Shown: piece by piece, positions 15,489 through 37,990 of the stretch
Position numbering within the stretch: position 1 is the first letter of the stretch
Layout of the letters: every line of letters starts with the position of its first letter
Assembly (NCBI GenBank): GCA_947632395.1
Contig: CANRPA010000005.1
Span: 1 to 44,351, forward strand
Source: an uncultured Bacilli bacterium
GTDB lineage: Bacteria; Bacillota_I; Bacilli_A; RF39; UBA660
Direction of reading: 5' to 3'
Length of the DNA stretch: 44,351 nt
Made by a program: the position numbers and the translations under genes
Notes under the pieces: generated by a model
Database searches by the model: none
What the model saw: the letters and a program-made list of their open reading frames with translations, nothing else
Told to the model about the DNA's origin: nothing

Positions 15489-15489
15489 T

Positions 15490-16809: not shown

Positions 16810-16827
16810 TTCAATGCAATTCTTTTT
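16792..16827. terminator. Bidirectional terminator between kinase and agrD
   Basis: aaaaagaattacatt / aatgcaattcttttt inverted repeat with 1 mismatch. Confidence 0.6.
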
Positions 16828-16828
16828 C

Positions 16829-16945: not shown

Positions 16946-17002
16946 ACTTCTCCTCCTCTCTTTATTCTTTTATATATTTAAACCTCAAAATAAAGTTTAA
17001 AC

Positions 17003-17623
17003 CTAATTATTTAAAAAATCTGGATGATTCTGTAAAAACGTTATATAGTTGTTGTAAGGTAATTTGAATAATTTATAAACACAAGGTGATATTAAACAAT
17101 TTTCTAATATACTAGATAGTATTAAACAGTTAGAAATAAAATTGTTATTTATAAGAACTGCTATAAAAGAAAATGTAATAACTATTAAAGTAGATATAGT
17201 TTTATAAACCAATCTTCTTTTTTTATTTACTATGGGTCTTTTATATGTATCAGCAGGTGAATTTTTAAAAATAAATATAATATTTAAAATACAAATAATA
17301 ATTTTAACATAAATATTAATATCTATATTTCTACATAAAATTGGTATTTCTATAAATATAATAGTAGAGCTTACTAAACAAATCCAACTTTTAGTAGCAT
17401 GTAATCCAAATGCTGTAGTTCTTATAATATTAAATAGAATCATAAATATTAATACATCTTTAAATATTCCTAATAATAAAGAAATTACACAAATAATAAT
17501 TAATTTATAAGAAGTTAAATATATACTAGTTAAACCATATTCTATTTCTTTTAATTTACCTTCATCGTAATCATTATATTTTTTTATATAATTCATGCAA
17601 TTATTAATAATAAACTTTTTCAT
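17003..17623 (-). CDS. agrB: AgrB peptide-processing membrane protein
   Basis: IEYGL, RTTAFGLHA...C catalytic His/Cys, SPADTYKRP. Confidence 0.93.
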   Translation of the reverse strand: MKKFIINNCMNYIKKYNDYDEGKLKEIEYGLTSIYLTSYKLIIICVISLLLGIFKDVLIFMILFNIIRTTAFGLHATKSWICLVSSTIIFIEIPILCRNIDINIYVKIIICILNIIFIFKNSPADTYKRPIVNKKRRLVYKTISTLIVITFSFIAVLINNNFISNCLILSSILENCLISPCVYKLFKLPYNNYITFLQNHPDFLNN

Positions 17624-21605: not shown

Positions 21606-22199
21606 ATGAATAAAGAAGATATTATATTAAATTTAGCTAAAAAAAATAATGGAATTATTACCACAAAAGAAGTAGTAAGTAAAAATATAAATAAGATTTT
21701 TTTGACAAGATTAGTTAATAACAAAAAACTAGAAAGAGTAAAAAAAGGTTTATATGTTTTGCCTTCTACTTGGGGTGATGAATATTTCAATTTAATTTAT
21801 GGAAATAATGCAGTTTTTTCTTATGAAACAGCTTTATATTTTTTAGAACTTTGCCAGTCGGTTCCAAGTGAATATCATATTACAGTAAATAGGGGATATA
21901 ATGGAAGTTTAAGGAAAATTAAAAAAGTGAAACTACATTTTGTGAAAAAAGAATTATTTGATTTAGGCTTAATTGAGATGAAAAGTCCTCAAGGACAATT
22001 TATAAAATGTTATAATGCAGAAAGATGTATATGTGATTTACTTAGGAATAGAGATAATCAAGATATAGAAATAATTAAATATGCTATAACAGAATATTTG
22101 AAGGATAAAAATAAGAGAAATATTCCTTTACTTCTTGATTATGCAAAAGTATTTAATATTCTAGATGATATCAATAAATATTTGGAGGTGCTAATATAA
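21606..22199 (+). CDS. abiEi: AbiEi antitoxin (type IV toxin-antitoxin)
   Basis: NGIITT wHTH, LERVKKGLY, FSYETAL, YNAERCICD; translationally coupled to toxin. Confidence 0.9.
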   Translation: MNKEDIILNLAKKNNGIITTKEVVSKNINKIFLTRLVNNKKLERVKKGLYVLPSTWGDEYFNLIYGNNAVFSYETALYFLELCQSVPSEYHITVNRGYNGSLRKIKKVKLHFVKKELFDLGLIEMKSPQGQFIKCYNAERCICDLLRNRDNQDIEIIKYAITEYLKDKNKRNIPLLLDYAKVFNILDDINKYLEVLI

Positions 22200-23053
22200 T
22201 GATTGATGCTGAAGATTTAAAAATTAAAGTAAAGACTAAAGCCCATGAAAATAACTTAGAACCTCAAGATATTATGCAAATGTATTTTTTTGAAAGGCTT
22301 TTATATAGAATATCAATAAGTGCATATAAATACAATTTTATATTAAAAGGTGGATTATTACTATCTGCAATATTTGGTGATGATCGTAGAACTACACAAG
22401 ATATGGATACTATGATAAAAGGAATTCCACTAGATGAAAGAAAAATAGAGAAAGTTATAAATGAGATTATTAATATAGATTGTGAAGATGGAATAAGTTA
22501 TAGTTTAAAGAAATCAAGAGAAATAAGATTAAATGATAAATATGGAGGAATTAGAGTAAACCTTCTAGGATATAAAGAACATTTACAAGTGCCACTATCT
22601 ATTGATATAACAGTAGGTGATCCAATTACTCCAAGAGAATTAGAATATAGATATAAATGTATGTTTGATGATTCTTATATTAACATTATGGCTTTTAATA
22701 TGGAAACTATTATTGCTGAAAAATTTGAAACATTCATTTCTGATAATATTATGAATACAAGAACGAAAGATTTTTATGATTTGTATATTTTATTAACTAG
22801 ATATTATGATAAAATTGATAAAAAAGTTTTAGTAAAGGCAATTAAAAACACTTTTGAAAGAAGAGAAACTGATTTTGATATAGATAAAATCATATATAAT
22901 TTTAGTAAAATAAAAGAAAGTGATAAGTTAAGATTAAATTTTAAAAATTATAAAAATAAAAAATCTTATGTATCTGATATTGATTATGATGAAATAATGA
23001 ATGCAATTAATTTGGTTATTGAATTATTAAAAAAAGAATTGGTTACAGTTTAG
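22199..23053 (+). CDS. abiEii: AbiEii nucleotidyltransferase toxin
   Basis: FILKGG, RTTQDMD, IAEK, RTKDFYD. Confidence 0.93.
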   Translation: MIDAEDLKIKVKTKAHENNLEPQDIMQMYFFERLLYRISISAYKYNFILKGGLLLSAIFGDDRRTTQDMDTMIKGIPLDERKIEKVINEIINIDCEDGISYSLKKSREIRLNDKYGGIRVNLLGYKEHLQVPLSIDITVGDPITPRELEYRYKCMFDDSYINIMAFNMETIIAEKFETFISDNIMNTRTKDFYDLYILLTRYYDKIDKKVLVKAIKNTFERRETDFDIDKIIYNFSKIKESDKLRLNFKNYKNKKSYVSDIDYDEIMNAINLVIELLKKELVTV

Positions 23054-23309: not shown

Positions 23310-23771
23310 TTATAGTTTATATTTTTTAACATAATTATTAAATTGTGGTTTCCTATGATTTAGATAATTTAGAGCATTAGTTTTAATACTACTTATTCTA
23401 GATACATTATATAGAATTTTTTCTTGTTCTTCAGTTGTTACATATTTATAATTTAAATACTTTTTATATATAATTGGACTAACTCCTATAATTTTTTTAA
23501 AAGTTTCAGAAAAATATTCTAAAGAATTAAAACCATTTTTAAAAGCAATACTTAATATATAATTATCATTTTTGAAAAATAGTAAACTATTATATATTCT
23601 TATTATATTTATATATTCGTGTATTGAAATATTTAATTCCTTTTTAAATTTTTTCATAATATATGTTTTATTAAAATAAAATATTAAACTTAATTCTTCA
23701 ATAGTTATTTCTTTATTTATGTTTTTATTTAAATATTCTAAAATATTACATATTAAGTCATTAGAGTACAT
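23310..23771 (-). CDS. AraC-family regulator (HTH domain only)
   Basis: IAFKNGFNSLEYFSETFKKIIGVSP signature. Confidence 0.9.
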   Translation of the reverse strand: MYSNDLICNILEYLNKNINKEITIEELSLIFYFNKTYIMKKFKKELNISIHEYINIIRIYNSLLFFKNDNYILSIAFKNGFNSLEYFSETFKKIIGVSPIIYKKYLNYKYVTTEEQEKILYNVSRISSIKTNALNYLNHRKPQFNNYVKKYKL

Positions 23772-23881
23772 AAAATCACCTTTATTAATTAATTATAACA
23801 ATTTTTTGAATAAAAAGCCATTTTTGTTTAAGTTAATAGAAAAGTAGATGCTATAATTAGATTGTGAAAGGAGTGATATGC

Positions 23882-25231
23882 ATGGCATATTCAAGATGGG
23901 CGACTGAAGAAGAACTAAAGTCAAAATTAACCCAAATCAGTTATGATTCTGAAATAAAAAAATCAGGAATTCCTTTGATGTATGATGACAAATATCTTTA
24001 TATTAAAGATGATGAATCCCATACCATGGTTATAGGCTCAGCAGGAAGTGGCAAAACACAAACAACAATGCTAACTCAGTTAAGACTTGCTATTAAAGCA
24101 AATGAATCATTTGTAATTCATGATGTTAAGGGTGAGGTTTATGATTTATTATCTGGTGAACTAAAGAAACAAAATTACAATATAGTTGTGATTAATTTAG
24201 ACAATCCTACTGTAGGCAATAATTTTAATCCTTTAACTTTACCTTATGAATTATATAAGAAAGGTGAAAAAGATAAAGCTATTGAATTATTAGAAAGCAT
24301 TGGATATTATTTTTGTTGTAATGAAACATTTGATGTAAAAGCTGATCCATTTTGGGTAAATTCAGCTATCTCATTATTTATAGGTTTATCTTTATATCTA
24401 TTTGAAAATGCAACTGAAGAAGAAATAAATATTAGTAGTTTATTAAATTTAGTATCAGAATTTGAAAAATTATCAGAAGAAATTAAGAAAATGGATAAAA
24501 CATCAGCAATTTATATTAATTTGTCTAATATTGTTCTTGCCCCTAATGAAACAAGAGGAAGTATAATATCAGTATTTGTACAAAATATAAGATTATTTGT
24601 ATCAAGAGAATCATTATTAAAATTATTATCTTCAACAAATTTCAATATTGAAAATGTACAAAAAGACAAAACAGCTATATTTATAATTAGCAATAGTAAA
24701 TTTGTTTCAAAGAGATTAATTCCTTTAATTATTGAAGAATGTTATTTTGCTGCAACTATGACTAATGATAAAACTCGTAGATTAAATATAGTTTTAGATG
24801 ATTTTGAAAATTTGATTCCAATTAGAGAATTTAATAATATGTTGACACTTGCAAGAAGTAATAATATAAAATTTAGTATCTTTGTAAGAAGTATATTAGA
24901 ATTAAGAAATATTTATGGAGTAGAAGGTACTGAAATATTAAAAATGGTATTTGGAAATATCATATACTTATTAGCAAATGATATTGAAACATTACAAGAT
25001 ATTTCAAAACTATGTGGTAATCAAAAATCTGAATATGGAATAGAACCTTTAATTTCCGTTGAAGAATTAAAATTACTTAATACTTTTGAGGCTATTGTTT
25101 TAATTCCCAGAATTAATCCTATAAGAACTAAATTATTACCTGATTATAAAATTGATTGGAAATTTAGTGAAGAAAAAGTTCCTATGCAAGAGTTTAAAAA
25201 TAAAACTGTTAAAGCATTTTGTATAAAATAA
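23882..25231 (+). CDS. VirD4/TraG-like coupling ATPase without membrane anchor
   Basis: YSRWAT, Walker A GSAGSGKT, HDVKGE, FNPL, DPFW, LDDFENL; ATG 23882 behind AAGGAG. Confidence 0.82.
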   Translation: MAYSRWATEEELKSKLTQISYDSEIKKSGIPLMYDDKYLYIKDDESHTMVIGSAGSGKTQTTMLTQLRLAIKANESFVIHDVKGEVYDLLSGELKKQNYNIVVINLDNPTVGNNFNPLTLPYELYKKGEKDKAIELLESIGYYFCCNETFDVKADPFWVNSAISLFIGLSLYLFENATEEEINISSLLNLVSEFEKLSEEIKKMDKTSAIYINLSNIVLAPNETRGSIISVFVQNIRLFVSRESLLKLLSSTNFNIENVQKDKTAIFIISNSKFVSKRLIPLIIEECYFAATMTNDKTRRLNIVLDDFENLIPIREFNNMLTLARSNNIKFSIFVRSILELRNIYGVEGTEILKMVFGNIIYLLANDIETLQDISKLCGNQKSEYGIEPLISVEELKLLNTFEAIVLIPRINPIRTKLLPDYKIDWKFSEEKVPMQEFKNKTVKAFCIK

Positions 25232-25620: not shown

Positions 25621-25923
25621 TCACTTAAATTAGAATATTTATAGTCAAATACATTTAAAATATATTTTTCCATATTTTTAAATGTTTTAAGCATTTTTTT
25701 CATATTCATACATTTAGAAACTTTGTTATTTTTACCATTAATATCTACGATTTTTAAATAATTTTTATAAAAAATACATTTTTTAAATTTAATAATAACA
25801 TTTTGTTGACAATTTCACCCTTTTGTTAATTTTTTGTTTAAAATTTAAAATATTTTCTTTTTTATTATAATGTGTTATAATTAATATGTTACAATAAAAT
25901 ATGATATGTTAGGGGTTGTACTT

Positions 25924-28900
25924 ATGAAATTATATGTAATGAATGGGAAACAAATAAATAAATATGCCTTACCATTTCAAAGTGAAGAATTTTATTCATT
26001 CGATTGCTTTTTTGATGGCTTTAGTGAAAAATGTACTATAACTTTACATAATATTAATAATATTTGGTACCTAAAAAGTAATGGTATGGTAAACGTTATA
26101 AACAATAATCAAAGTGTTTTAGATAAAATTCAATTAGTAGAGTATGGAATTTATTATATAAAAGTTCTTGGAATGAATAAATATGTTGGAATATATGCAA
26201 TGCCAAGTCAAGAAAAAAATTTATTAGAGTTTTCATACAAAAATATAAATAATATTACTATAGGTAATGGTTCAAATTGTAATATAAATTATAATAACCA
26301 ATTCATTTCAGGCGTGTATGCTACTATACAATTTAAAGCAAATGAGTGGATTATAAGTGGGAATGTAAACTCAAAAACTGGAATATTTGTTAATGATAAA
26401 AATGTCAAATCTGCAAAATTGAAGTATGGTGATGTTATTTTCATTTTTGGATTAAAAATAATTTGGATGCCAACTTTTTTAAAAATTAATAACCCTAACA
26501 ATATGGTTAAAATTACAGGGCTCAGTATATATATGAGTGAAGATATAGTTGATAATGTTAATGTACAAAGCGTAACTGATGAAGAATCTGCAATTGAATT
26601 ATATAAAGAGGATGATTATTTTTATCACATTCCTAGAATTAAAGAAACTATTGAAGAAGAAGAAATTTCAATAGACCCACCTCCAACTTCACAAATTCAA
26701 GAAGAAATGCCATTTTGGCTTACTTTAGGAACAAGTTTAACCCTTGTTGCATCATCTATAGTTATGATTTTTAATATATATAATAATGTTGTAGCAGGAC
26801 GAAATGTTTTAATGTTAATTCCACAAATAATAATGTTATTTGCAATGGTAGTTGGAAGTTTTGTTATGCCTAACTTACTAAAAAGATATCAAAAGAAAAG
26901 GGCTAAAAAAAGAGAAAAGTTAAGACAAACCAGATATAAAGAATATTTGGAAACAAAAAAACAAGAAATTGAAAAAATTTTAAGACATCAAAATGAAGTT
27001 TTACTTCAAAATAATTATAATGATATTAAATGTATAGAAGCTATAAGATCTAATAACCGTATTTTGTGGAGTAGAGAAATTTTTGATGATGATTTTTTAA
27101 ATATTAGATTGGGATTAGGAAATTTTCCCGCAAGTTTACATATTAATGCCCCAGAGGAACATTTTACTTTAGATAAGGATAATTTGTTTCAAGCAGTTTA
27201 TGATGTTGTTGATGCTTCAAAAATTTTAAAAAATGTTCCAATAACTTATTCCTTTCTAGAAAATAATATAAGTTCATTTATATTTAATAGTACTCAAAAA
27301 AATAATTATATAAACGATATAATGTTAAAATTGTTAACATTTCATAGTGGTACAGATTTAAAGATAGTTATTTTTACTAATAAAAATAGAGAAAATTTTT
27401 GGAATTACTTGAAAATTCTACCACATTGTTGGAATGATGAAAAAAGTGTGAGATTTTTTGCAACGGATTCTTCTGAAATTAATGAGGTATCAGCGGTTTT
27501 AGATGCAGAATTTAAACAAAGAAAGGAAATGTTCAGCAGTAATTCAGGTGAGTCAGAAAATATTGATAAGAACAAATGCTACAAAAATTTTATTCCATAT
27601 TATCTAATAATAACTGATGATTATCAAAATGCTAAAAATAGTCAAATAATATTGGATATTTTAAAAACTAAACAAAATTATGGATTTTCTTTATTAACTA
27701 TAGCAGATTCAATGAAGTCAATACCAAATAAATGTGAAAAATTTATTCAAATTGGTGAGAAAGATGGGTGCATATTAAATAAAGAATTAAATTCTAAATC
27801 ACAGCAAGAATTTTTAATTGAAAAATTACACACTATAGATATGGAAGAAATTTGCATGAAATTAGCTAATATTCCTCTTATGCCTAAAGATGGTCTTAAA
27901 GAGTTTCCAACATCTTTGCCTTTTTTAGAAATGTATAATGTGTCAAAGATAGAACAATTAAATATTTTAAATAGATGGCAAACAAATAATCCGGTTACAT
28001 CTTTATCAACTATTGTCGGTGTACATAAAGATATGGAATTATTTAAACTAGATTTGCATGAAAAACATCATGGACCACATGGCCTTGTTGCAGGTATGAC
28101 AGGATCAGGTAAATCAGAATTTATAATAACATATATTTTATCTATGGCTGTTAATTATCATCCATATGAAGTTCAGTTTGTTCTTATAGATTATAAAGGT
28201 GGTGGACTTGCTGGAGCTTTTGAAAATAAAGAAACAAATATTAGAATTCCACATTTAATAGGTACGATAACAAATTTGGATACTAGTGAAATGAATAGAA
28301 CGCTAGTATCTATAGATAGTGAATTAAAAAGAAGACAAAAGATTTTTAATGAAACAAAAGATTTGTTAGGTGAAAGTACTATTGATATATATAAATATCA
28401 AAGGTTATATCGTGAAGGAAGAGTAAAAAAACCAATGGCTCATTTGTTTATAATATGTGATGAATTTGCTGAATTAAAAAGCCAACAACCTGATTTTATG
28501 AATCAATTGGTTTCTACTGCAAGAATTGGTAGATCATTGGGTGTTCATTTAATATTGGCAACACAAAAACCTAGTGGCGTTGTAAATGATCAAATTTGGA
28601 GTAATTCTAAATTTAAGGTATGTTTAAAGGTTCAGGATAGAAGTGACAGTATGGAAATGTTGAAGAGACCTGAAGCTGCAAGTATAAAAGAGGCTGGAAG
28701 ATTTTATTTACAAGTAGGTTATGATGATTATTTTGATATTGGTCAGTCAGCATGGTGTGGAGCTAAATATGTTCCTGCCAATAAAATTATTAAAAAAATT
28801 GATGATTCTATTAGTTTTGTAAATAACACAGGATATACTATAAAATCAATAAATGATGCTGTAGTTAAAGAGGTATCTGCAGATTTAGGAGATCAATTAA

Positions 28901-30561
28901 CAAATATAGTAAAGCATATTTGTAATTTATCTGAAAAATACAATATTAAAACAGAAAAATTATGGTTAGATAAAATACCAGAGATTATTTACGTTAATAA
29001 ATTAAAAGAAAAATATAATTATAAAGCAAAACCATATTGCATTACTCCAATTATAGGTGAATATGATAGCCCTAGTACTCAATCACAAGGCCTTTTAAAT
29101 TTAGATTTGACATTTGGTGGTAATACTGTAATATATGGTCAAAGCGGAAGTGGTAAAGAAAATTTACTTTCAACAATAATATGGTCAACATTTATTGAGC
29201 ATACAACAGATGAAGTAAATATTTATGTAATAGATTGTGGTGCTGAAACACTTAAAATGTTTAGTAAAATTCCTCATGTTGGAGAAGTTGTTGATATAGG
29301 TGATTCGGACAAAATTTATGAAATTTTTAATTTAGCCTTTCAAGAAGTAGAAACTAGAAAAGAGCTTTTTTCTGATTATGCTGGAAATTATGTCAATTAT
29401 TGTCAAAATAGTGGTAATAAACTTCCTTTAATTATAATAATTATAAATAACTATGATAGCTTTATTGAATCGTATTCAAAATTATCTGAAGATGTACAAT
29501 CAATATATCGTGAATGTAGTAAATATGGTATAAAATTTATAATATCAACTGTTAACCCTTCAACTATACGTAGTAAGATGCTTCAAAATTTTGAAAATAA
29601 AATTTCTTTACAATTAGGTAGTGATGATGCTTATAGAAATTTATTTGGTGCTCCAAGAGGACTATTACCTTCTAAAGTCTTTGGAAGAGGAATTGTTCTT
29701 AAAGATAATAACTTTTATGAATTTCAAACTGCATATTTTACAAATCCAAATCAAATGAGTAATGTTTTAAGAACAGTATCTCAAAAATTAAACTCATATT
29801 ATACTAAAAAGGCAAAAAAAATATTTATAATACCTGAAAAGATTGGACTAAATTCAATAATTAAGGAATCAAAAGGATTATCTAAAATAGCATTAGGTTA
29901 TAATATTGAAAAGAAAGAAATTGAAACATATAATTTCATATCAAACAAAATAAATTTAATTTTGTCAGAAGAAATGAGTGAAAAAATAGATTTTATATAT
30001 GCATTAGTAAGACAATTTGCTATGAATGAAAAAACGAATATTATTATTCTTGATTTTGTCAATGCTTTTGAAAAAGAGATTTCTAACACTGTAAAATTTA
30101 ATAATAATTTTGATTCTATTTTTAATTCGATATATTCTAATTTAAAAAATGATAAAACAAGTAAAGTTAAAAACATGTATGTATTTATAGGGCCTGGTGC
30201 TATCAAAAACGTAGTAAGTGAAAATACTTATGAAATTATCAAAAAAATATTTACAAATGTAAATTCATTAGAAAACAATTTCTTTGTATTTGCAGATGAC
30301 TATGATAATATTAAAAATTTAAAATTAGAAGATTGGTTCCAATCTGGAGTCAACAATTCTAATGGTATATGGTTAGGTGAAGGTATTGCTAATCAAATGA
30401 TGATTAACGTTTCTGATTTATCTTTAGATGATAGAAAGAGAAGTTTCCCATATATGGGTTATACTATAGTAAATGGTAAAAGCAAATGTATAAAATGTGT
30501 ATTAGATGAAGAAATAAGTAATAATGAAGAAAAGGAGGCTATAGTATTAGATGAAAAATAA
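25924..30561 (+). CDS. essC: Type VII secretion ATPase EssC
   Basis: FHA-like N-terminus, 2 TM, HGPHGLVAGMTGSGKS, IDYKGG, DEFAEL, GRSLGVHLILATQ; further degenerate FtsK domains. Confidence 0.95.
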   Translation: MKLYVMNGKQINKYALPFQSEEFYSFDCFFDGFSEKCTITLHNINNIWYLKSNGMVNVINNNQSVLDKIQLVEYGIYYIKVLGMNKYVGIYAMPSQEKNLLEFSYKNINNITIGNGSNCNINYNNQFISGVYATIQFKANEWIISGNVNSKTGIFVNDKNVKSAKLKYGDVIFIFGLKIIWMPTFLKINNPNNMVKITGLSIYMSEDIVDNVNVQSVTDEESAIELYKEDDYFYHIPRIKETIEEEEISIDPPPTSQIQEEMPFWLTLGTSLTLVASSIVMIFNIYNNVVAGRNVLMLIPQIIMLFAMVVGSFVMPNLLKRYQKKRAKKREKLRQTRYKEYLETKKQEIEKILRHQNEVLLQNNYNDIKCIEAIRSNNRILWSREIFDDDFLNIRLGLGNFPASLHINAPEEHFTLDKDNLFQAVYDVVDASKILKNVPITYSFLENNISSFIFNSTQKNNYINDIMLKLLTFHSGTDLKIVIFTNKNRENFWNYLKILPHCWNDEKSVRFFATDSSEINEVSAVLDAEFKQRKEMFSSNSGESENIDKNKCYKNFIPYYLIITDDYQNAKNSQIILDILKTKQNYGFSLLTIADSMKSIPNKCEKFIQIGEKDGCILNKELNSKSQQEFLIEKLHTIDMEEICMKLANIPLMPKDGLKEFPTSLPFLEMYNVSKIEQLNILNRWQTNNPVTSLSTIVGVHKDMELFKLDLHEKHHGPHGLVAGMTGSGKSEFIITYILSMAVNYHPYEVQFVLIDYKGGGLAGAFENKETNIRIPHLIGTITNLDTSEMNRTLVSIDSELKRRQKIFNETKDLLGESTIDIYKYQRLYREGRVKKPMAHLFIICDEFAELKSQQPDFMNQLVSTARIGRSLGVHLILATQKPSGVVNDQIWSNSKFKVCLKVQDRSDSMEMLKRPEAASIKEAGRFYLQVGYDDYFDIGQSAWCGAKYVPANKIIKKIDDSISFVNNTGYTIKSINDAVVKEVSADLGDQLTNIVKHICNLSEKYNIKTEKLWLDKIPEIIYVNKLKEKYNYKAKPYCITPIIGEYDSPSTQSQGLLNLDLTFGGNTVIYGQSGSGKENLLSTIIWSTFIEHTTDEVNIYVIDCGAETLKMFSKIPHVGEVVDIGDSDKIYEIFNLAFQEVETRKELFSDYAGNYVNYCQNSGNKLPLIIIIINNYDSFIESYSKLSEDVQSIYRECSKYGIKFIISTVNPSTIRSKMLQNFENKISLQLGSDDAYRNLFGAPRGLLPSKVFGRGIVLKDNNFYEFQTAYFTNPNQMSNVLRTVSQKLNSYYTKKAKKIFIIPEKIGLNSIIKESKGLSKIALGYNIEKKEIETYNFISNKINLILSEEMSEKIDFIYALVRQFAMNEKTNIIILDFVNAFEKEISNTVKFNNNFDSIFNSIYSNLKNDKTSKVKNMYVFIGPGAIKNVVSENTYEIIKKIFTNVNSLENNFFVFADDYDNIKNLKLEDWFQSGVNNSNGIWLGEGIANQMMINVSDLSLDDRKRSFPYMGYTIVNGKSKCIKCVLDEEISNNEEKEAIVLDEK

Positions 30562-30805
30562 AGTATTAGTTGAGATAATAGTACCAGTACTTGATGAAAG
30601 ATATAGCCTTTTTTTACCAATAAATAAACGTATAGGTAAAATAATTACACTCATTAATAAAGCAATAACAGAATTATCAGGAAATTCATATGTTTTAAAC
30701 AATAGTGCATCATTATACAACAGAATAACAGGAGTTAGATATCAGGCTAACATGTTGATTAGTGAAACAGATATAAGAAATGGTGCTGTTTTGGTTCTTG
30801 ATTAA
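30551..30805 (+). CDS. YukD/EsaB-like ubiquitin-fold T7SS protein
   Basis: 84 aa, YSLFLP, ETDIRNGAVLVL; overlaps essC stop. Confidence 0.75.
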   Translation: MKNKVLVEIIVPVLDERYSLFLPINKRIGKIITLINKAITELSGNSYVLNNSASLYNRITGVRYQANMLISETDIRNGAVLVLD

Positions 30806-30824
30806 TAGATAGGGGGGGAAAACT

Positions 30825-32498
30825 ATGATTAAAAATTTAAAAATATTTACTAATAAAAAAAATCACAAATTTTCATTGAAAAAAGGTGTTACCTTTGCAG
30901 CAATGACTGTTTTAGTTACACTACCACTTGCTGCATGTTCAAAACAATCAAATTTAAATACAAATTTTAACGATAATGATAATGTTTATAGTGTAACTGA
31001 TGAATACAATAATTCAAATTCAAAAGATGATGGATTTAATGATTTAAATTCAGAAGATGTTGGATTTGAAGAAAATTTTGAACAAAACTATATTAATTCC
31101 TTTTTGAATTCAACTATAGTATTTGATAATGCTGATGTTGAAAATCTCAGTAATAAAATCAGTTCAATTAATGTAGATTTTAAATATTCAAATTTTTATA
31201 ATCTAGATGCTGCAATGAGCAAATATAATAATTTAAAAGAGATTAATGTAACAAATAACAATATTATAAAAATAAATTCAAATGATTTATTTGATATTGT
31301 TAAAAAAAATAATGATGAATATATGAAATCCTATAAGGGGAGTAAATATACACCATTATCGGATTCATTATTAAAACAAATTTGTAATTACTTGACTTTG
31401 AGTATTAATAGTGAAGTAGATAGTCATACAAATTATTCTGATTTGAATGAAAAAATTCAAAAATTAAAAATATTTAATTATAATGATTTTGCTTATGCAT
31501 TTTATGATAATAACATAGATATATTAGGAGTTAGTGTTAATTCTATACAGACAATAAATGAAGAAAATTCATTAGAAAGATTAATAACTCATGAAGGCAA
31601 ACATTTTATGCAATCAATAAAAAATGATTTTGATGGATCGTATACAATGCGTTATGGAATAAGTTATAAGTGGGATGATTTAGCTGTTAATAGTTTATAT
31701 AATGAATGGTTTTTTGAGGCAAGTGCAGAACAATTAACTATTAATCAAATAGGAAATGAAGGAAAATGTTTGTATGAAAGCGGCATAAATTTTTTAGAAA
31801 TGATAAAAACATCAACTCTTTTGTCTGAGAAAAATGGAATAAATGATTTAGAAAAGATTTCTCTACAGGGTGATTTAAATAATTTATTTGATTATTTTGG
31901 TTGCAACACAGAAAAAGAAAAAATGGAAGTTTTAAAACTTATGTTTGCTTACAATATAATTATAACTACAGATCCACAATCTTCTGTTAATGAATTTTAT
32001 GACAATTATAATAAGGAAAGTGGACATAAACTTAGTTACATAGATAAATTGGATTATAGTGATTATTTATTAAGCCCAATTTCAGAAGTGCTTTCAAAAA
32101 AATTTTACAAAAATTTGATTTATTCAATTAGAAATAAAGAAATAACTATTGAAGAATTATTTTCAATAATAAGTGTATTTGAAATGCAACTTAATAAACA
32201 GTGTAGATATTATGAAAGTTCAAAGACTAAATATTTAGAAAGTTTATATACAACATATAATGATATACAATCTGAATTGTTTGAATGTATATCATCAAAA
32301 TTAAAAATTTCAAAAGAAGATATACAAGAACTATATAATGCTTATTATAAAAATTTTAATACTCCAAATATAAAGTTTATGTTAGAAGATAAAAATTCAT
32401 TCTATAGTGAATTGTATAATAAAAATAAGTATTTTAGAATGGATAGCATTAATGCATATTATAATAAATATTTATCAGGAAATAACAAGAAATATTAG
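30825..32498 (+). CDS. Lipoprotein, putative zinc metallopeptidase
   Basis: Lipobox LAAC; HEGKH plus downstream FFEASAE. Confidence 0.6.
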   Translation: MIKNLKIFTNKKNHKFSLKKGVTFAAMTVLVTLPLAACSKQSNLNTNFNDNDNVYSVTDEYNNSNSKDDGFNDLNSEDVGFEENFEQNYINSFLNSTIVFDNADVENLSNKISSINVDFKYSNFYNLDAAMSKYNNLKEINVTNNNIIKINSNDLFDIVKKNNDEYMKSYKGSKYTPLSDSLLKQICNYLTLSINSEVDSHTNYSDLNEKIQKLKIFNYNDFAYAFYDNNIDILGVSVNSIQTINEENSLERLITHEGKHFMQSIKNDFDGSYTMRYGISYKWDDLAVNSLYNEWFFEASAEQLTINQIGNEGKCLYESGINFLEMIKTSTLLSEKNGINDLEKISLQGDLNNLFDYFGCNTEKEKMEVLKLMFAYNIIITTDPQSSVNEFYDNYNKESGHKLSYIDKLDYSDYLLSPISEVLSKKFYKNLIYSIRNKEITIEELFSIISVFEMQLNKQCRYYESSKTKYLESLYTTYNDIQSELFECISSKLKISKEDIQELYNAYYKNFNTPNIKFMLEDKNSFYSELYNKNKYFRMDSINAYYNKYLSGNNKKY

Positions 32499-32537
32499 AA
32501 ATAGCAAAAAAAAGTGTAAAGTTATTTAAAAAAATAT

Positions 32538-32565
32538 TGCAAAATTTTAACATGTGTGATATAGT
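32538..32565 (+). promoter_or_regulatory. Putative promoter of WXG100-like cluster
   Basis: TTGCAA ... TGaTATAGT extended -10. Confidence 0.5.
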
Positions 32566-32597
32566 AAAGACAAGGTAGGTTTGTAGATAATAAGGAG

Positions 32598-32900
32598 TTG
32601 ATTGTATTGACAAATGTTGTAGGAATAAATGAGCAAAAAATTGATAAATTAATCAATGAAATTTATTTCTACTCAAATAGAATTAAAATGGTTTTAGATC
32701 AGGCAGATTCTATAGTAGAAAATACAAATTCTTTTTATGATTGTGAAAGTGCAAAAATGTTTAGAAGTGCATTTGAGAAATATAAAAGGAACTTTAATAT
32801 TATCAACAAAAATATCTTAAGTTATTCTGACGATTTATCATCAGTTAAAAATTTTTATCGAAACAAAGCACAGATGTTTTCGGTAAATTTAAAAAAATAA
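32598..32900 (+). CDS. WXG100-like protein (degenerate motif)
   Basis: About 100 aa helical hairpin pattern, central YDCESA; T7SS context. Confidence 0.6.
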   Translation: MIVLTNVVGINEQKIDKLINEIYFYSNRIKMVLDQADSIVENTNSFYDCESAKMFRSAFEKYKRNFNIINKNILSYSDDLSSVKNFYRNKAQMFSVNLKK

Positions 32901-32919
32901 ATGTTAGGTGGTGAAAAAA

Positions 32920-33282
32920 ATGGGACTTTTCGGAGGAATAGGAGGAACAACTACAGCAATGAGTAAAGGTGCTTCTGATACAGGAATATCTGATTTAACT
33001 GTAGGTATATCTATATCAGGTATGGAGGCTTACATTCAACAATTAAAAGCAGATTTATTAGATACTTCAATCGAAAAAATTAATGATACATCAAATATGT
33101 TGAATGCAATAAATTCTGGTTGGCAAGGAGCTTCAAGGGATAGATTTATTGAAGATTTTAATGCTGCAAGAGAAGCAATTGCAAACGATTTAAGAGCAGA
33201 GTATAATGATTTGGCTGCAAGATTACAAGAGTTACAAGATAATTATTTTAGACAGGATGATGAATTATATGAAAAATTATAA
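32920..33282 (+). CDS. WXG100-family protein
   Basis: Central WQGAS, C-terminal YFRQD (YxxxD). Confidence 0.8.
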   Translation: MGLFGGIGGTTTAMSKGASDTGISDLTVGISISGMEAYIQQLKADLLDTSIEKINDTSNMLNAINSGWQGASRDRFIEDFNAAREAIANDLRAEYNDLAARLQELQDNYFRQDDELYEKL

Positions 33283-33296
33283 GGAGGTAAGAAATT

Positions 33297-33794
33297 ATGG
33301 CAAATTGGAATGTTGAAAGTTCAAAATCAGGTTGGGCTACGAATTCGATAGTTAATAATTTTAAATCACAAAGAGAGTCTACTAGAAGTGCTGGAATTGG
33401 TTCGGATATGTGGAGCCAGGTTGTTAAAGGTATTTCTAATTTCTTTAGTGGTGGTGGCTATAGTGTTGTTGGTATAAATGCAACTAAAGTTGAAGAAATG
33501 AGAAATGCTATAAGAGAGTATGTTAGAGCTATCCAAGCACATTTAGATGGTATAGATCCAACAACTAATGCTAATGGTGCTTTTAAAGGTGAAGAAATAC
33601 AAAATGCTGTCAGAAGTTACGTAGAAAGATTGAAACAATATTCTAAAGACTTAACATCACAATTACTCGCATTTAGCGATAAGTTAAAAGATGTTGCAGA
33701 TGCATGGGAAGCATATAATAAAAGTATGGCAGAGAATGTTACTTCTACTTCTTCTTCATTTGGTAATAATGGTGCTTATACTGAACAGAAGTAG
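33297..33794 (+). CDS. WXG100-like protein with N-terminal extension
   Basis: AFKGEE turn between long helices; VVGIN motif shared with neighbours. Confidence 0.6.
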   Translation: MANWNVESSKSGWATNSIVNNFKSQRESTRSAGIGSDMWSQVVKGISNFFSGGGYSVVGINATKVEEMRNAIREYVRAIQAHLDGIDPTTNANGAFKGEEIQNAVRSYVERLKQYSKDLTSQLLAFSDKLKDVADAWEAYNKSMAENVTSTSSSFGNNGAYTEQK

Positions 33795-33806
33795 TTGGTT
33801 GCGTTT

Positions 33807-34091
33807 ATGTCGGAATTAGATTTATTAAGCAGTTATAAAAATAAGTATATTCAATTATATAATGACATTAATAGAATAATAACTAATTTGAAATCTGCTA
33901 TTGATATGTTAGATTCTGCTTACAATAATTTTGAAAATTGCTATGTCGTGGATGATTATCCATACAATTCAGATGCAATAAAAAAAATTAAGCAAGAATT
34001 GGTAAATGAAAAAAATGATTTACAAAATAAAGTACTTTATTCAATAAATCTAAAAATTTCAGATTACAATAAAAGAATATCCAATTTATAA
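33807..34091 (+). CDS. Small helical T7SS-associated protein
   Basis: Coiled-coil hairpin pattern; operon context. Confidence 0.5.
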   Translation: MSELDLLSSYKNKYIQLYNDINRIITNLKSAIDMLDSAYNNFENCYVVDDYPYNSDAIKKIKQELVNEKNDLQNKVLYSINLKISDYNKRISNL

Positions 34092-34143
34092 ATCAATAAT
34101 TGATTTTATGCAGTTCACATATATATAAATAATAATCTGCAAG

Positions 34144-34174
34144 AACTAGATTATGAATAATCTAGTTTTATTTT
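34144..34174 (+). terminator. Intra-cluster hairpin or terminator
   Basis: aactagatta-tgaa-taatctagtt perfect stem followed by T-rich tail. Confidence 0.6.
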
Positions 34175-34187
34175 AGGAGGTAACAAA

Positions 34188-34478
34188 TTGATAAAAATTG
34201 ATACAAAAAAAGTCAATGAAAGTGGACATGATTTGATGTTGTTATCTGATGAATTAGGGCAATTAATAGATGAACTTTTTTTAAGGTTAACATGTATGAA
34301 TACTAAGACATTTGAATGGGTAGGTAAAGCAGCGGATGAATATATTAGAAATTTAAAAAATGAAAAAACTGAATATGTTATATTTAAAAATGAGTTACAT
34401 GATTTTGGAAAATATTTAACAGTTGTTGCAAATACATATGAATCAAAAATTGAAAGTTGTAGGTATGATAAAAAATGA
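34188..34478 (+). CDS. WXG100-family protein
   Basis: IKIDT start, central WVGKAA, 96 aa. Confidence 0.8.
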   Translation: MIKIDTKKVNESGHDLMLLSDELGQLIDELFLRLTCMNTKTFEWVGKAADEYIRNLKNEKTEYVIFKNELHDFGKYLTVVANTYESKIESCRYDKK

Positions 34479-34789
34479 CAAAATTACTTTTAAATACTAC
34501 TTTTTTAAAAAAAAATGTTATTGATAAGTTAGATTTATCTATTGATAGTTTACGTCAATGCTATTCTACATCATGTCGTCTTAATGTTCCAGATGATTTT
34601 GAATATCAAAATATGTTAAAATCACTAACTTATGATATTAATAAAATCAAGAATGAGATTTCTAATTTTAAGGATTCAATGGATAATAATGTTATTACAT
34701 ATGATAGGACTGAAGATAGTTTTGTTTCTACTGCTAATAATTTAGGAAAAAATGTTATAAAAAAAAGAACAACATTAATGTTAAAATAG
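34475..34789 (+). CDS. WXG100-like protein
   Basis: VPDDF turn, YDRTE (YxxxE); ATGA overlap with previous gene. Confidence 0.55.
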   Translation: MTKLLLNTTFLKKNVIDKLDLSIDSLRQCYSTSCRLNVPDDFEYQNMLKSLTYDINKIKNEISNFKDSMDNNVITYDRTEDSFVSTANNLGKNVIKKRTTLMLK

Positions 34790-34808
34790 AATAAAAGGTG
34801 GGATGTAA

Positions 34809-35687
34809 ATGTTTACTAAAAAATTTCTTCCAATTGGTACAATATGTAAAATTAATAAAGTCGATTCTTTGGTTATGATTATAGGTTATTTCATGTACAA
34901 ATATAATGATGGTATTGAAAAATATGATTATTCTGTATGTTTATATCCTGAAGGATTATATATGTCATCAAATTTATTTGGTATTAATCATGATGAAATT
35001 ATAGAAATAGTTAAAATTGGCTATATTAATGATAATTTTGAAAGTTTAAATAGTGAATTACATAAATATGAAATGTCTGTGCCTGTTAAGAGTGTTGAAA
35101 ATAAAATAGATATTTTATTTGATGAAAATGGTGTAGTTATAGGTGTAGGTAACGAAAAAATAGATTCATCTAATATTTCTAAAACTGAAAATAATTTGAA
35201 ATTTAATTCAAATGGAGTGGTTTTAGACGATGGAAATAGTACAAAACAAGGATCAAACTTTAAAACTAACTTAAAATTTGATTCAAATGGAGTTATTTTA
35301 GACGATGGAAATAGTACAAAACAAGGATCAAACTTTAAAACTAACCTAAAATTTGATTCAAATGGAGTTATTTTAGACGATGGAAATAGTACAAAACAAG
35401 AATCAAGTCCTAAAACTAATTTAAAATTTAATTCAAATGGAGTAGTTTTAGATGATGAAAATAGTACAAAACAAGAATCAAGTCCTAAAACTAATTTAAA
35501 ATTTAATTCAAATGGAGTAGTTTTAGATGATGAAAATAGTACAAAACAAGAATCAAGTCCTAAAACTAATTTGAAATTTAATTCAAGTGGAGTAGTTTTA
35601 GATGATGAAAATAGCAATAAACAAGAATCAAACTCTAAAACTAACTTAAAATTCGATTCAAATGGATTTGTTGTATCAGAAAATTAG
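34809..35687 (+). CDS. DUF4176 protein with C-terminal tandem repeats
   Basis: FLPIGT, VMIIG, YDY..CLYPEG, NHDEI..IGY. Confidence 0.88.
   Translation: MFTKKFLPIGTICKINKVDSLVMIIGYFMYKYNDGIEKYDYSVCLYPEGLYMSSNLFGINHDEIIEIVKIGYINDNFESLNSELHKYEMSVPVKSVENKIDILFDENGVVIGVGNEKIDSSNISKTENNLKFNSNGVVLDDGNSTKQGSNFKTNLKFDSNGVILDDGNSTKQGSNFKTNLKFDSNGVILDDGNSTKQESSPKTNLKFNSNGVVLDDENSTKQESSPKTNLKFNSNGVVLDDENSTKQESSPKTNLKFNSSGVVLDDENSNKQESNSKTNLKFDSNGFVVSEN
35193..35684 (+). repeat. 75-bp (25-aa) tandem repeat, 6 full units plus 1 partial
   Basis: Units start at 35193, 35268, 35343, 35418, 35493, 35568, 35643. Confidence 0.95.
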
Positions 35688-36079: not shown

Positions 36080-36799
36080 ATGGAGAAGAGAACAGATATA
36101 AAAACTCAGAATGGCACACTTTCAAATATTAATCAAGAAAAAATAGGATCAAAAAAATTTAAATTACAAATTGATGCAAAAAAAATTCTTTCAATTGTAG
36201 CTGCAGGTGCTATTTTTGCTGCTGGGTTTGGATTAGGAAAATCAATGGGTAAAACTGAAAATAAAGTTAATTTAGATCCAAATAAAATTATGGCAACTAT
36301 TGATTATGATGTAAATCCTGGTGATACATTATATGAAATAGTAGATAAATATTATAATGATGATTATGAAGGTTTATATGCATCAAAAGAAAATTTTGTA
36401 AAATCAATTATGGATCAAAATTCGTTAAATAATGATAAAATAATTACAGGTCAAAATTTAACAATTCCAGTAATTATTGATAAAGACAATCCATATTTTC
36501 AAGAAATAATTAGGATACAATCTAAAATAAATGAATTAGAAGAGAGTGCGAAATGGATTAAATATACTGTAAAATTAGATGATAGCTTATCAATTTTAGC
36601 AGGATGGGGTTGTGGAAGGACAGCAAGTGCTGAAGAACAAGAGGAAATACGTGAGCACAATAATTTGCCTTTAAATACTATTTATCCTGGTCAAGAAATT
36701 GAAATAATTAATCCTAAAATAGGTAATTTAAAAATAGAACTTAGAAAAGCACAACAAAATTTTAAAGAGTCTTTAATTAATAATAAAAAAACAAAATAG
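36080..36799 (+). CDS. Membrane-anchored protein with two LysM domains
   Basis: One TM; YDVNPGDTLYEIV...ITGQNLTIP and YTVKLDDSLSILA...IYPGQEIEI. Confidence 0.85.
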   Translation: MEKRTDIKTQNGTLSNINQEKIGSKKFKLQIDAKKILSIVAAGAIFAAGFGLGKSMGKTENKVNLDPNKIMATIDYDVNPGDTLYEIVDKYYNDDYEGLYASKENFVKSIMDQNSLNNDKIITGQNLTIPVIIDKDNPYFQEIIRIQSKINELEESAKWIKYTVKLDDSLSILAGWGCGRTASAEEQEEIREHNNLPLNTIYPGQEIEIINPKIGNLKIELRKAQQNFKESLINNKKTK

Positions 36800-36824
36800 G
36801 TTGCTATTTTGTTTTTAATTTATG

Positions 36825-37394
36825 TTAAACATCTCTTTTATTAAATTTTTTTAAATAATAATTTCTAAGTTCTTTAAATCTAGCATAATGTACTACTTCT
36901 CTTTGTCTTAAAAATGAAAGTGGTGCGAGTAAATCAGGATCATCAGTCATGTTCATTAAATGTTCATAAACAGCTCTAGCTTTTTGTTCTGCAGCCATAT
37001 CTTCAGTTAAATCAGCATGCCAATCACCAGTAGTAGCAAAGTAAGCGGCTGTAAATGGAACTCCATTTGCATCTACAGGGAATAAAGCATGATCATGACC
37101 AACATATTGACCTGTTAATCCATTATCAATTAACTCTTTAACACTTGCACCTTCCATAAGTTGTTTTACCATAGTTGCAATCATTTCTACATGTGCAAGT
37201 TCTTCTGTTCCAATATCATTTAAAAGTGCATAACCTTTTTCATCAGGCATAGTATATCTTTGATTTAAATATCTTAAAGCAGCAGAAAATTCTCCATTTG
37301 AACCACCATATTGTTCTAGAAGTGCTTTTGCCATTTTTAAATCTTTATTTTTAATATTTATAGGATATTCTAATTTTTTTTCATATTTCCACAT
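36825..37394 (-). CDS. cotJC: CotJC manganese catalase-family protein
   Basis: MWKYEKKLEYP, QYGG..GE, DIGTEELAH, REVVH. Confidence 0.95.
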   Translation of the reverse strand: MWKYEKKLEYPINIKNKDLKMAKALLEQYGGSNGEFSAALRYLNQRYTMPDEKGYALLNDIGTEELAHVEMIATMVKQLMEGASVKELIDNGLTGQYVGHDHALFPVDANGVPFTAAYFATTGDWHADLTEDMAAEQKARAVYEHLMNMTDDPDLLAPLSFLRQREVVHYARFKELRNYYLKKFNKRDV

Positions 37395-37403
37395 ATAAAC
37401 CTC

Positions 37404-37859
37404 CTAATTATCCCAAGGCCATGGCATATCGTCCCAAGCCCAAGGATATTTATTTAAACTATCAGAGTTTAAAACAATAGGGCCATATTTAGACTCATAT
37501 TGTTCCATTAAGCCTTCCTTTTGTTTTCTATATTGATTAAATAAATCAATTGCTTTTCTATCATCTGGATAAATATCTAAATAAAGATTTAAATCAACCA
37601 TTGCAAATCCCAAAGCATCTATATCAGTTAAAAGACTTGCTTGTTCATTCATAGGTTTAACATCATATGGAACTTTTATTTTATAAGGATCATATAGGTC
37701 CTTAAATAAGTTTCCTCTAATAAATCCATTATAGGGATCATATAAATTATTACTATCTTCATATGCTTCTTTATATATATTATTGTCTATGTTTTGATTA
37801 AAAAGATTATTATACATATTAGTATAATTGAATTTTCTAAAATCAGGGTAGTTATTCAT
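37404..37859 (-). CDS. cotJB: CotJB with N-terminal CotJA-like domain
   Basis: DLNLYLDIYP, YGPI, W.W...PWPW; N-terminal RGNLFKDLYDPY; ATG 37859 behind GGAGG. Confidence 0.88.
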   Translation of the reverse strand: MNNYPDFRKFNYTNMYNNLFNQNIDNNIYKEAYEDSNNLYDPYNGFIRGNLFKDLYDPYKIKVPYDVKPMNEQASLLTDIDALGFAMVDLNLYLDIYPDDRKAIDLFNQYRKQKEGLMEQYESKYGPIVLNSDSLNKYPWAWDDMPWPWDN

Positions 37860-37990
37860 AATTTTCCTCCTCAATCTATGTTATGAGATTAAACCATATA
37901 TGTATGGGTTAATGTCTACTAGGAAAAAAATAAAAAAAACTATAGACAAAAACACTATAATTTGTTAAAATATATTTCGTAAACGTTTAT

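Follow-up and report, generated by a model that had tools for sequence, protein, structure and literature searches.

The described systems closest to the locus considered here are type VII secretion systems (T7SSs), above all those of the T7SSb type. In the structural account of the B. subtilis system (PMC12637312), YukB constitutes the central channel, YukD is held between the FHA and DUF domains of YukB, and dimers of YukC form an outer crown. Garrett, Higginson and Palmer (2024; PMC11217815) defined the further subtypes T7SSc-T7SSj from RefSeq; in their description, the ATPase TsxC is present in all of these, the ubiquitin-like TsxB and the WXG100 protein TsxA are present in most, and each subtype adds partners of its own.

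The locus lies in a stretch of 44,351 nucleotides (hereafter the window) from an uncultured Bacilli bacterium (GenBank assembly GCA_947632395.1, contig CANRPA010000005.1; GTDB lineage Bacillota_I, Bacilli_A, RF39, UBA660). This window corresponds to contig C5 in an assembly of 1.31 Mb and 78 contigs with a completeness of 92.56%, and the DNA has a G+C content of approx. 25%. A reading made earlier from the letters of the window (the original prediction) listed an essC gene, a yukD-like gene, a lipoprotein gene, six small genes and a DUF4176 gene, all of which are present on the forward strand where they had been placed (Table 1). With a probability of roughly 0.7, these genes are a functional operon of a reduced, T7SSb-related T7SS whose sole conserved machinery is the EssC ATPase and the YukD-like protein. 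The reading as a stripped-down or new T7SS subtype, which had been proposed originally, is supported by gene content, by conservation and by the phylogeny of EssC. The accompanying statement that Firmicute T7SSb requires EsaA, EssA and EssB is correct for T7SSb itself, but it does not extend to Firmicute T7SSs in general, since the classification describes eight further subtypes without them (PMC11217815).

The EssC ATPase and the search for its partners

The EssC protein of the window scores 966.5 bits against TIGR03928, the NCBI model for T7SSb EssC (cut-off 778.4), and it also matches the Pfam families FHA (33.2 bits) and FtsK_SpoIIIE (155.7 bits). Two FHA-like modules are found at the N-terminus, transmembrane (TM) segments at residues 270-288 and 301-319, and Walker A motifs at residues 730 (GMTGSGKS) and 1078 (GQSGSGKE). 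Among solved structures, its closest relative is that of B. subtilis YukB (9qks; 406.5 bits, residues 228-1013), followed by weaker PDB relatives, namely T. curvata EccC (168.6 bits) and EccC5 (114.4 bits). The start of essC given originally, 25924, is an in-frame ATG, the seventh codon of the gene as called here from 25906. Across 43 EssC proteins of the type found in the window's family, 104 positions are invariant, including the D1 Walker A motif. The phosphothreonine-binding residues of the FHA modules are not conserved in this set (Arg in 7, Ser in 15 and His in 17 of the 43 proteins); T7SSb FHA modules have likewise been reported to lack them in the account of PMC11217815. The second Walker A motif (window positions approx. 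29137-29160) reads GSGK-E/D in 34 of 51 EssC proteins of the family type, compared with GSGK-S or GSGK-T in those canonical EssC proteins that match the Walker A pattern. Judging from these residues, the D2 domain may be catalytically degenerate.

The phylogeny of EssC was analysed with FastTree (67 proteins) and with IQ-TREE in its quick mode (36 rows, then 43 rows with an outgroup), for which support is given by the Shimodaira-Hasegawa-like approximate likelihood ratio test (SH-aLRT) only. Named T7SSb references came from plasmid records of B. mycoides (two), L. monocytogenes, L. fermentum and Enterococcus sp., whose loci are annotated as, or are visibly, canonical (esxA-esaA-essA-esaB-essB-essC), and two actinobacterial EccC-like proteins served as the outgroup. 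In the FastTree tree, EssC proteins of the family type form a clade of 51 of the 67 rows (support 99), with the window protein in a subclade of 12, and EssC proteins encoded next to EssB form a clade of 12 rows (support 100). The same two groups, the former with 21 of 36 rows, are parted in the first IQ-TREE tree by a branch with an SH-aLRT of 100. In the rooted tree, the five named T7SSb proteins and 11 EssB-adjacent proteins of the phylum constitute a 16-row clade (100), and the window EssC lies outside it: the 21 family-type rows (99) and three rows of a short EssC type together constitute the sister clade of 24 rows (100). An EssC from Brevibacillus laterosporus, possibly T7SSc, branches outside both clades. 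Thus, the family's EssC proteins are a clade of their own, separate from those of Bacillus, Listeria, Limosilactobacillus and Enterococcus, and the nesting within ordinary T7SSb that had been named originally as evidence against the subtype reading was not seen.

The genome of the window contains no match to PF10140 (EssB/YukC), PF10661 (EssA), TIGR03929 (EsaA) or PF04740 (LXG). Hidden Markov models (HMMs) specific to the phylum were built from canonical loci (11 EssB, 11 EsaA, 10 EssA-position and 10 YukD-position proteins) and searched against the six-frame open reading frames (ORFs) of this genome. Those for EssB and EsaA found nothing there at E <= 10, and the best match of the EssA-position model, which is a weak one, was a 368-amino-acid ORF (E 0.0032, 16 bits) that was judged spurious. 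The 27 genomes of the genus give the same picture: neither EssB (over the Pfam cut-off) nor EsaA (TIGR03929) occurs in any of them, and PF10661, a weak model of a short protein, is marginally over its cut-off in a single genome, inside a 426-amino-acid frame that was likewise judged spurious. In the family, EssB is over the cut-off in none of 151 genomes from 150 genera, each at least 90% complete, and jackhmmer recovered no EsaA in family loci. Hence, as regards the search of the genome and its relatives that had been suggested originally, neither essB nor esaA turned up in the own genome or in the genus, nor essB in the family, and for essA only marginal matches of weak models were obtained. 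Five weak EssB/YukC matches in congeners were rejected because they fall across two genes of a pilus-type locus, and a 434-amino-acid gene 5' of essC in many congeners is ffh rather than a divergent essB.

Gene order is consistent with these searches. Ten loci outside the family, chosen for a TIGR03928 score over the cut-off (L031-L040), all have EssB directly before EssC; EsxA is labelled in nine of them and a BLAST-labelled EsaA homologue in seven, in variable order. None of the 26 loci taken from other genera of the family contains an EssB homologue, and neither there nor in the genus does an EssB or EsaA homologue adjoin EssC. In most of the 26, the ubiquitin-like gene is adjacent to EssC, and in approx. 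20 it lies directly 3' of it. EssC-grade matches to TIGR03928 occur in 63 of 399 genomes of the class and in 25 of 51 of the window's family, and, within the genus, in 21 of the 24 other genomes, often in two or three copies; a search at the level of the phylum added no families beyond the class. In congeners with genomes of approx. 1.1-1.4 Mb (L013, L015, L019 and L020), EssC loci are present as two or three paralogues, which in many cases stand in tandem and in many cases immediately 3' of ffh. In the window genome, ffh lies on contig C26, with no T7SS locus there.

It might be argued that the window encodes an ordinary T7SSb whose EssB, EsaA and EssA are too divergent to be detected or are encoded on unassembled DNA. 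The incompleteness and fragmentation of the assembly would fit this explanation, as would the fact that EssC passes the T7SSb model and has YukB as its best solved relative. A canonical locus from another family of the same class was used as a positive control; it comprises a WXG100 gene (80.7 bits), genes of 725, 138 and 73 amino acids, EssB and EssC. Pfam was blank on its EsaA-, EssA- and YukD-position proteins, so that failure to match an HMM is by itself weak evidence that EsaA and EssA are absent; their absence is argued mainly from gene order and from the phylum-specific models applied to one genome. EssB is a different matter. It was readily detected in the control locus (PF10140, 171 bits), yet in none of the 151 family genomes, and it accompanies EssC in ten of ten canonical loci but in none of the 26 family ones, nor does any locus of the genus carry EssB or EsaA in that place. 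Together with the blank phylum-specific searches for EssB and EsaA in six-frame ORFs and the position of EssC outside the T7SSb clade, these results render an ordinary T7SSb improbable.

The cassette and its small proteins

The ten genes are tightly packed, neighbours either overlapping or lying at most 99 nt apart, and between positions 25200 and 36200 terminator-like hairpins are found only upstream of essC (25323-25339 and 25594-25615). Because of this spacing and the location of the hairpins, the stretch from essC to the DUF4176 gene reads as a single tight operon, to which the VirD4-like gene further upstream does not belong. A promoter scan was uninformative in such AT-rich DNA (100 sites, with 98.4 expected). 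All ten genes are intact and single-copy in the genome, whose DUF4176 and WXG-like matches are confined to the operon.

The gene for the ubiquitin-like protein overlaps the stop of essC by 11 nt. Although the protein has no Pfam match of its own, a profile of 38 family members aligns in hhalign with canonical YukD-position proteins (probability 87.5%, E 3.6e-6). PF08817 is weakly matched by six of the 38 family proteins; among canonical YukD-position proteins it is matched by three of ten (best E 1.2e-10). The AlphaFold2 model (predicted local distance difference test, pLDDT, 94.5) has a beta-grasp fold. Its top Foldseek matches in the PDB are to the ubiquitin-like domain of ESX-5 EccD5 (7np7 and 7npt; E 1.2e-5, query-normalised template modelling score, TMq, 0.70-0.77), with ubiquitin, SUMO and NEDD8 next. 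A search of the family profile against PDB sequences gave nothing meaningful.

The six small genes had all been described as WXG100-like, and for four of them this holds. In hhalign profile-profile comparisons with ten canonical EsxA proteins, protein 5 is the closest (97.5%, E 6.6e-12), followed by proteins 1 (94.8%, E 5.3e-8) and 2 (94.8%, E 5.1e-8). Protein 3 is more distant from EsxA (80.8%, E 1.3e-5) but matches protein 1 at 96.2%, and proteins 4 and 6 reach only 12.7% and 0.6%, respectively. An iterative search from a canonical EsxA recovered the same four proteins (E 1e-14 to 1e-21) and neither of the other two. Pfam WXG100 is matched by genes 1 (E 0.0022), 2 (E 2.3e-5) and 5 only, in each case under the gathering score, and protein 5 is also under the cut-off of TIGR03930. 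The WxG motif itself is universal only in families 2 (22 of 22) and 5 (26 of 26). Proteins 4 and 6 match no Pfam family (10 and 14 family members searched, respectively), apart from chance coiled-coil matches for protein 4. Protein 4 falls into one cluster with the 125-amino-acid genes from sister loci that bear toxin-like genes; for one of these 125-amino-acid genes, a weak YwqH-like match (E 0.0065) was seen. In terms of sequence and profile similarity, proteins 1, 2, 3 and 5 are thus members of the WXG100 superfamily, and proteins 4 and 6 are other small proteins without a Pfam family. TM segments and signal peptides are lacking in all six.

The DUF4176 protein is identified by PF13780 (55.2 bits against a cut-off of 25, residues 6-76) and is the sole copy in the genome. 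Its C-terminal tail is encoded by a 75-bp unit repeated 6.4 times (35188-35666) and contains eight copies of the motif F-[DNS]-x-[NDS]-G-x-[VIL]. At least two copies of this motif occur in 16 of 17 long DUF4176 proteins, which come mostly from the cassette (a part of them was checked), compared with one of 19 short ones, mostly from other loci. In the tails of cassette DUF4176 proteins, two to 13 copies are spaced by approx. 25-30 amino acids, also at L088:9066-10355 and L082:13839-15155.

The order essC, ubiquitin-like gene, lipoprotein gene, genes 1-6 and DUF4176 gene recurs with minor rearrangements. The ten-gene cassette is found with intact ORFs in four congeners (G015, G011, G005 and G018) and in four further genera, in two of which the block from the lipoprotein gene to the small genes is inverted. 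Species-representative genomes, searched by way of the lipoprotein, yielded the cassette in 19 of 26 loci. It is therefore conserved in at least five genera, with protein identities to the window of 24-55%; a check of gene-order conservation in related genomes, as proposed originally, accordingly turned out in favour of the cassette and of an EssB-less layout in the family. When the proteins of 43 family loci with 47 EssC were clustered, only the ubiquitin-like gene (41 loci), DUF4176 (21) and a WXG cluster (17) recurred widely. The cargo differs in other EssC subclades of the genus. One class of sister loci has an EsxA-like gene of 90 amino acids and genes of 96 and 125 amino acids, followed by a gene for a protein of 630-1411 amino acids without a Pfam family and then by small genes and DUF4176; another class ends in a Zeta-toxin gene. 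In another genus, a gene 3' of EssC encodes a 584-amino-acid protein with endolysin-like, Amidase_5 and NlpC/P60 C-terminal domains. None of these large proteins has an LXG match over the cut-off, and they are toxin-like by architecture only.

It had also been suggested that the small helical proteins perhaps form a heteromeric conduit and that no toxin is exported; such a conduit could be extracellular or lie in the envelope and might include the lipoprotein. That the six genes are kept together across five genera or more, which is not how polymorphic toxin modules behave, would suit such a conduit, and so would the lack of an LXG match in the genome and of toxin or immunity genes in the cassette. 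Nevertheless, none of the six proteins carries a TM segment or a signal peptide, and four are relatives of WXG100 proteins, which, where studied, are soluble secreted dimers or targeting partners according to PMC11217815. Moreover, sister loci with the same type of EssC encode large toxin-like proteins, such as the 584-amino-acid amidase-domain protein, and those in congeners do so together with DUF4176. A conduit in place of toxin export is consequently doubtful and was not borne out by these data. A decaying or non-functional T7SSb remnant, whose partners were lost in genome reduction, is the least probable explanation: family genomes are indeed small (0.8-1.6 Mb) and in-frame stops interrupt EssC in some relatives (G017, G018 and G058), but all ten window genes are intact, 104 positions are invariant in the 43 EssC proteins, two or three such loci are kept in genomes of approx. 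1 Mb, and the intactness of the cassette in 19 loci at 24-55% protein identity implies long purifying selection.

The lipoprotein and the surroundings of the operon

The lipoprotein has no match in Pfam, NCBIfam or PDB sequences, and its family profile likewise gave nothing meaningful against PDB sequences. It possesses a signal peptide and the lipobox LAAC, whose cysteine (Cys38) is invariant in nine of nine sequences. A low-complexity linker follows the lipobox; in the AlphaFold2 model (pLDDT 85.4, predicted template modelling score, pTM, 0.83), residues 1-82 stay under a pLDDT of 50, whereas most residues from 90 onwards exceed 90. When 1.84 billion representatives were searched with a profile, 464 relatives were obtained at E <= 0.001, of which 326 reach E <= 1e-30; with few exceptions they are approx. 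550 amino acids long. In 64 diverse homologues, H256, E257, H260 and E298 are invariant, and E302 is retained in at least 90%. The protein therefore carries the HExxH motif and the downstream glutamate, the third zinc ligand, of MA-clan gluzincins.

Structural comparison gave matches of a similar kind, with scores in a range that the tool calls middling. VIA-align against 48,161 chains ranks M1 aminopeptidases first, with Z scores of 8.3 (root-mean-square deviation 4.7, 188 aligned residues), 8.1 and 7.9, where, by the tool's own warning, values under 8 are common for unrelated folds. Approximately 30 of the 50 best matches are metallopeptidases (M1, M30, M36, M4, M9, M13, M48 and minigluzincins), and their alignments span residues approx. 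148-380, including the motif. The best Foldseek match of the model is LTA4 hydrolase (E 0.042), and weak SprT-like Pfam matches occur in five of the 64 family members. A homologue with 44% identity retrieved only clusters without a name from the ESM Atlas; the nearest named ones are M78, M90 and M26_C peptidases and one DUF2300 (scores 0.77-0.84), which can serve as leads only. Taken together, motif and fold are good evidence, although not proof, that the lipoprotein is a gluzincin-like peptidase.

The lipoprotein gene is present in only six of 151 sampled family genomes and is restricted to one subclass of family loci. The seven lipoprotein loci that are not cassettes, out of the 26, contain stand-alone homologues with 23-27% identity from six Clostridia-type metagenome-assembled genomes (MAGs) and one Erysipelotrichaceae MAG (L092, L094, L096, L097, L099, L100 and L104). 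Each has a lipoprotein or TM anchor, and HExxH is kept in all seven. Neither EssC nor other T7SS genes lie nearby, and the neighbouring genes are mutually unrelated and give no functional hint. Because homologues of this kind stand alone without EssC, the gene appears to have been recruited into the cassette.

Table 1. Genes of the operon and of its surroundings in the window
Feature	Position	Strand	Length (aa)	Remarks
EssC-type ATPase	25906..30561	+	1551	TIGR03928, Pfam FHA, FtsK_SpoIIIE, two TM helices
YukD/EsaB-like ubiquitin-fold protein	30551..30805	+	84	hhalign, AlphaFold2 model, Foldseek
Lipoprotein, predicted gluzincin-type zinc-metallopeptidase domain and helical C-terminal domain	30825..32498	+	557	lipobox, HExxH...E, fold
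Small helical protein 1	32598..32900	+	100	WXG100 superfamily, without WxG motif
Small helical protein 2	32908..33282	+	124	WXG100 superfamily, WQG, Gly/Ser-rich N-terminal extension
Small helical protein 3	33297..33794	+	165	distant WXG100 relative, long N-terminal extension
Small protein 4	33795..34091	+	98	no Pfam family
Small helical protein 5	34188..34478	+	96	best EsxA equivalent, WVG
Small protein 6	34475..34789	+	104	no Pfam family
DUF4176 protein, tail of repeated F-[DNS]-x-[NDS]-G-x-[VIL] motifs	34809..35687	+		PF13780
agr-like quorum-sensing set	14787..17623			LytTR response regulator, GHKL histidine kinase, AgrB on opposite strand
secA	18888..21380			
AbiEi/AbiEii toxin-antitoxin pair and AraC-type regulator	21606..23053 and 23310..23771	+ and -		between secA and the VirD4-like gene
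VirD4/TraG-like coupling protein	23864..25231	+	455	no TM segment
LysM membrane protein, with cotJC- and cotJB-like genes on the opposite strand	36080..37874			directly 3' of the operon

Just 5' of essC lies the gene for the VirD4/TraG-like coupling protein, which scores 124.6 bits against T4SS-DNA_transf and 163 bits against a CD1115-family model (cut-off 250) and has a paralogue with 38% identity on contig C2 (65884-67281). It was rejected as a part of the T7SS, given that it stands beside EssC in no relative and that the terminator-like hairpins separate it from essC. The AbiE and AraC-type genes upstream of it may be an island-like insertion. Further upstream, the agr-like set follows the ribosomal-protein/rpoA operon. 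On the other side, the LysM protein falls just short of the cut-off of a YneA-like model (55.6 of 60 bits), and the cotJC- and cotJB-like spore-coat genes suggest a spore-forming lineage despite the small genome.

Proposed mechanism and relation to known systems

Several points weigh against a reduced T7SS as proposed here. The absence of partners is argued from HMMs and MAGs and, for the window, from a genome that is 92.56% complete and in 78 contigs; the Pfam scan, its EssA model included, missed the EsaA-, EssA- and YukD-position proteins of the control locus, and it is possible that an unrelated membrane partner is encoded elsewhere. A further cluster of proteins of 217-262 amino acids occurs in nine of the 43 family loci. 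The trees were made with FastTree and the quick mode of IQ-TREE, with SH-aLRT support only for the latter, and many rows were flagged for unusual composition. There is no recognisable toxin in the window cassette, and the fold of the lipoprotein matches metallopeptidases at middling scores (best Z 8.3), with no Foldseek match at E <= 0.001.

If the ten genes do form a reduced T7SS, its working can be outlined by analogy; secretion itself, the binding partners and the activity and target of the protease are what we infer. If the proteins are arranged as YukB and YukD are in the B. subtilis structure, the FHA modules of EssC and its DUF domain would have the ubiquitin-like protein clamped between them, and the membrane channel would consist of EssC multimers, with neither an EssB crown nor EsaA. 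The four WXG100-type proteins would be secreted substrates or co-substrates, with protein 5 as the EsxA equivalent, and proteins 4 and 6 might be their partner proteins. DUF4176 has been described as a non-secreted chaperone of LXG toxins in the account of PMC12482557, and the protein of the cassette could similarly act as a cytoplasmic chaperone or adaptor. The lipoprotein would be exported by Sec, anchored by lipid on the outer face of the membrane and act as a zinc metallopeptidase, most likely on secreted proteins or on the wall around the exit site, loosely like the mycosin of T7SSa.

A bolder version of this scheme is tentative and, in our estimation, probably goes too far. According to it, the family would represent a natural minimal T7SS whose translocon consists of nothing but a multimer of EssC clamped by the YukD-like protein. 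In the cassette, this translocon would serve a non-toxin, 'housekeeping' purpose: fixed heteromers of WXG100 type would be exported and processed or tethered at the cell surface by a lipid-anchored zinc protease, an independently arisen analogue of mycosin, while the FDxNGxV tail of the DUF4176 protein would serve as a multivalent docking strip for cargo or EssC.

The family is a candidate natural minimal system in which to ask which parts transport by T7SSs requires, as well as a small structural target. The whole family keeps an FHA-bearing EssC and YukD, with no EssB or EsaA found, and often maintains two or three copies per genome of approx. 1 Mb. These loci also extend the T7SSa-j catalogue, which was drawn from RefSeq, into uncultured gut lineages, and through them a family of surface HExxH proteins (464 representative clusters) that had carried no annotation is connected with protein secretion.

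Like the T7SSa operons, which encode MycP (mycosin), the cassette presumably contains the gene of an extracytoplasmic protease that is tethered to the membrane. MycP belongs to the subtilisin-like serine proteases and is anchored by a C-terminal TM segment, whereas the lipoprotein of the window has an HExxH...E zinc motif and a fold that resembles MA-clan peptidases. Likeness to T7SSb is broader. Window and T7SSb systems share an EssC with FHA modules that lack the phosphothreonine-binding residues, two TM helices and FtsK-type ATPase domains, to the extent that the window protein passes TIGR03928 and has YukB as its best solved relative; they also share a separate YukD/EsaB-like ubiquitin-fold protein, WXG100 proteins and DUF4176. 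Unlike T7SSb, the window system has no EssB, EsaA or EssA that could be found (the EssA models being weak), its ubiquitin-like gene follows essC instead of preceding essB, its EssC falls outside the clade of Bacillus, Listeria, Limosilactobacillus and Enterococcus proteins, and the D2 Walker A of its type is GK[E/D] in 34 of 51 EssC proteins, compared with GK[S/T] in the pattern-matching canonical ones.

Two other kinds of locus bear on this comparison. In a neighbouring family of the same class (L025 and L042-L044), a second EssB-less layout comprises two genes of approx. 99 amino acids, a protein of approx. 700 amino acids with SLH and Big_2 domains, EssC and a gene of approx. 80 amino acids. 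The short EssC of these loci is sister to the window type (SH-aLRT 100). As in the window type, no EssB stands beside EssC and a small gene follows it; unlike the window type, EssC has 1250-1300 amino acids, i.e., approx. 250 fewer, and it is preceded by the two small genes and the SLH/Big_2 protein. A plasmid record of the cultured Lachnospiraceae species Agathobacter rectalis (NZ_CP143948.1, L113) has the order WXG100, two Imm59 genes, EsaB/YukD, a 227-amino-acid FHA protein and an EssC of 1169 amino acids, with no EssB, EsaA or EssA annotated and a mobile element right after EssC. This YukD-FHA/EssC locus was rejected as one of the same type because its EssC is sister to the canonical clade (SH-aLRT 92).

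With T7SSc-j, as they are described in PMC11217815, the window system shares the retention of the ATPase, the ubiquitin-like protein and WXG100 proteins with other or fewer partners, and, as in T7SSi, WXG genes of the window type sit with the cargo and not at a fixed core position. T7SSg is called 'relatively simple' in that account; however, the ATPases of T7SSg and T7SSh have no FHA, unlike the window EssC. The partners reported for these subtypes (PMC11217815) include the kinase TsxD, the PPM phosphatase TsxF, the DUF6382-FHA protein TsxJ, the Ig-like giant TsxI, the vWA protein TscE, the EspG-like TsxG, the DUF5050 propeller TsgL and the AAA+ ATPase TsfV. Pfam found none of their domains in the ten operon proteins or the flanks, in a comparison that did not include a genome-wide search, and no partner clusters of this kind recur in the 43 family loci. 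The window type is set apart from T7SSd-j by described gene content, its trees having been built without TsdC-TsjC reference sequences. Among the published subtypes, as the classification presents them (PMC11217815), the predicted lipoprotein metallopeptidase is particular to the window cassette. It should also be noted that the T7SSc-j catalogue is RefSeq-based, whereas the window family is known here from MAGs only; our literature search retrieved no paper describing this arrangement and no 'T7SSk'. The arrangement is absent from the main text of the T7SSa-j classification (PMC11217815) and looks like an undescribed variant of a known machine.

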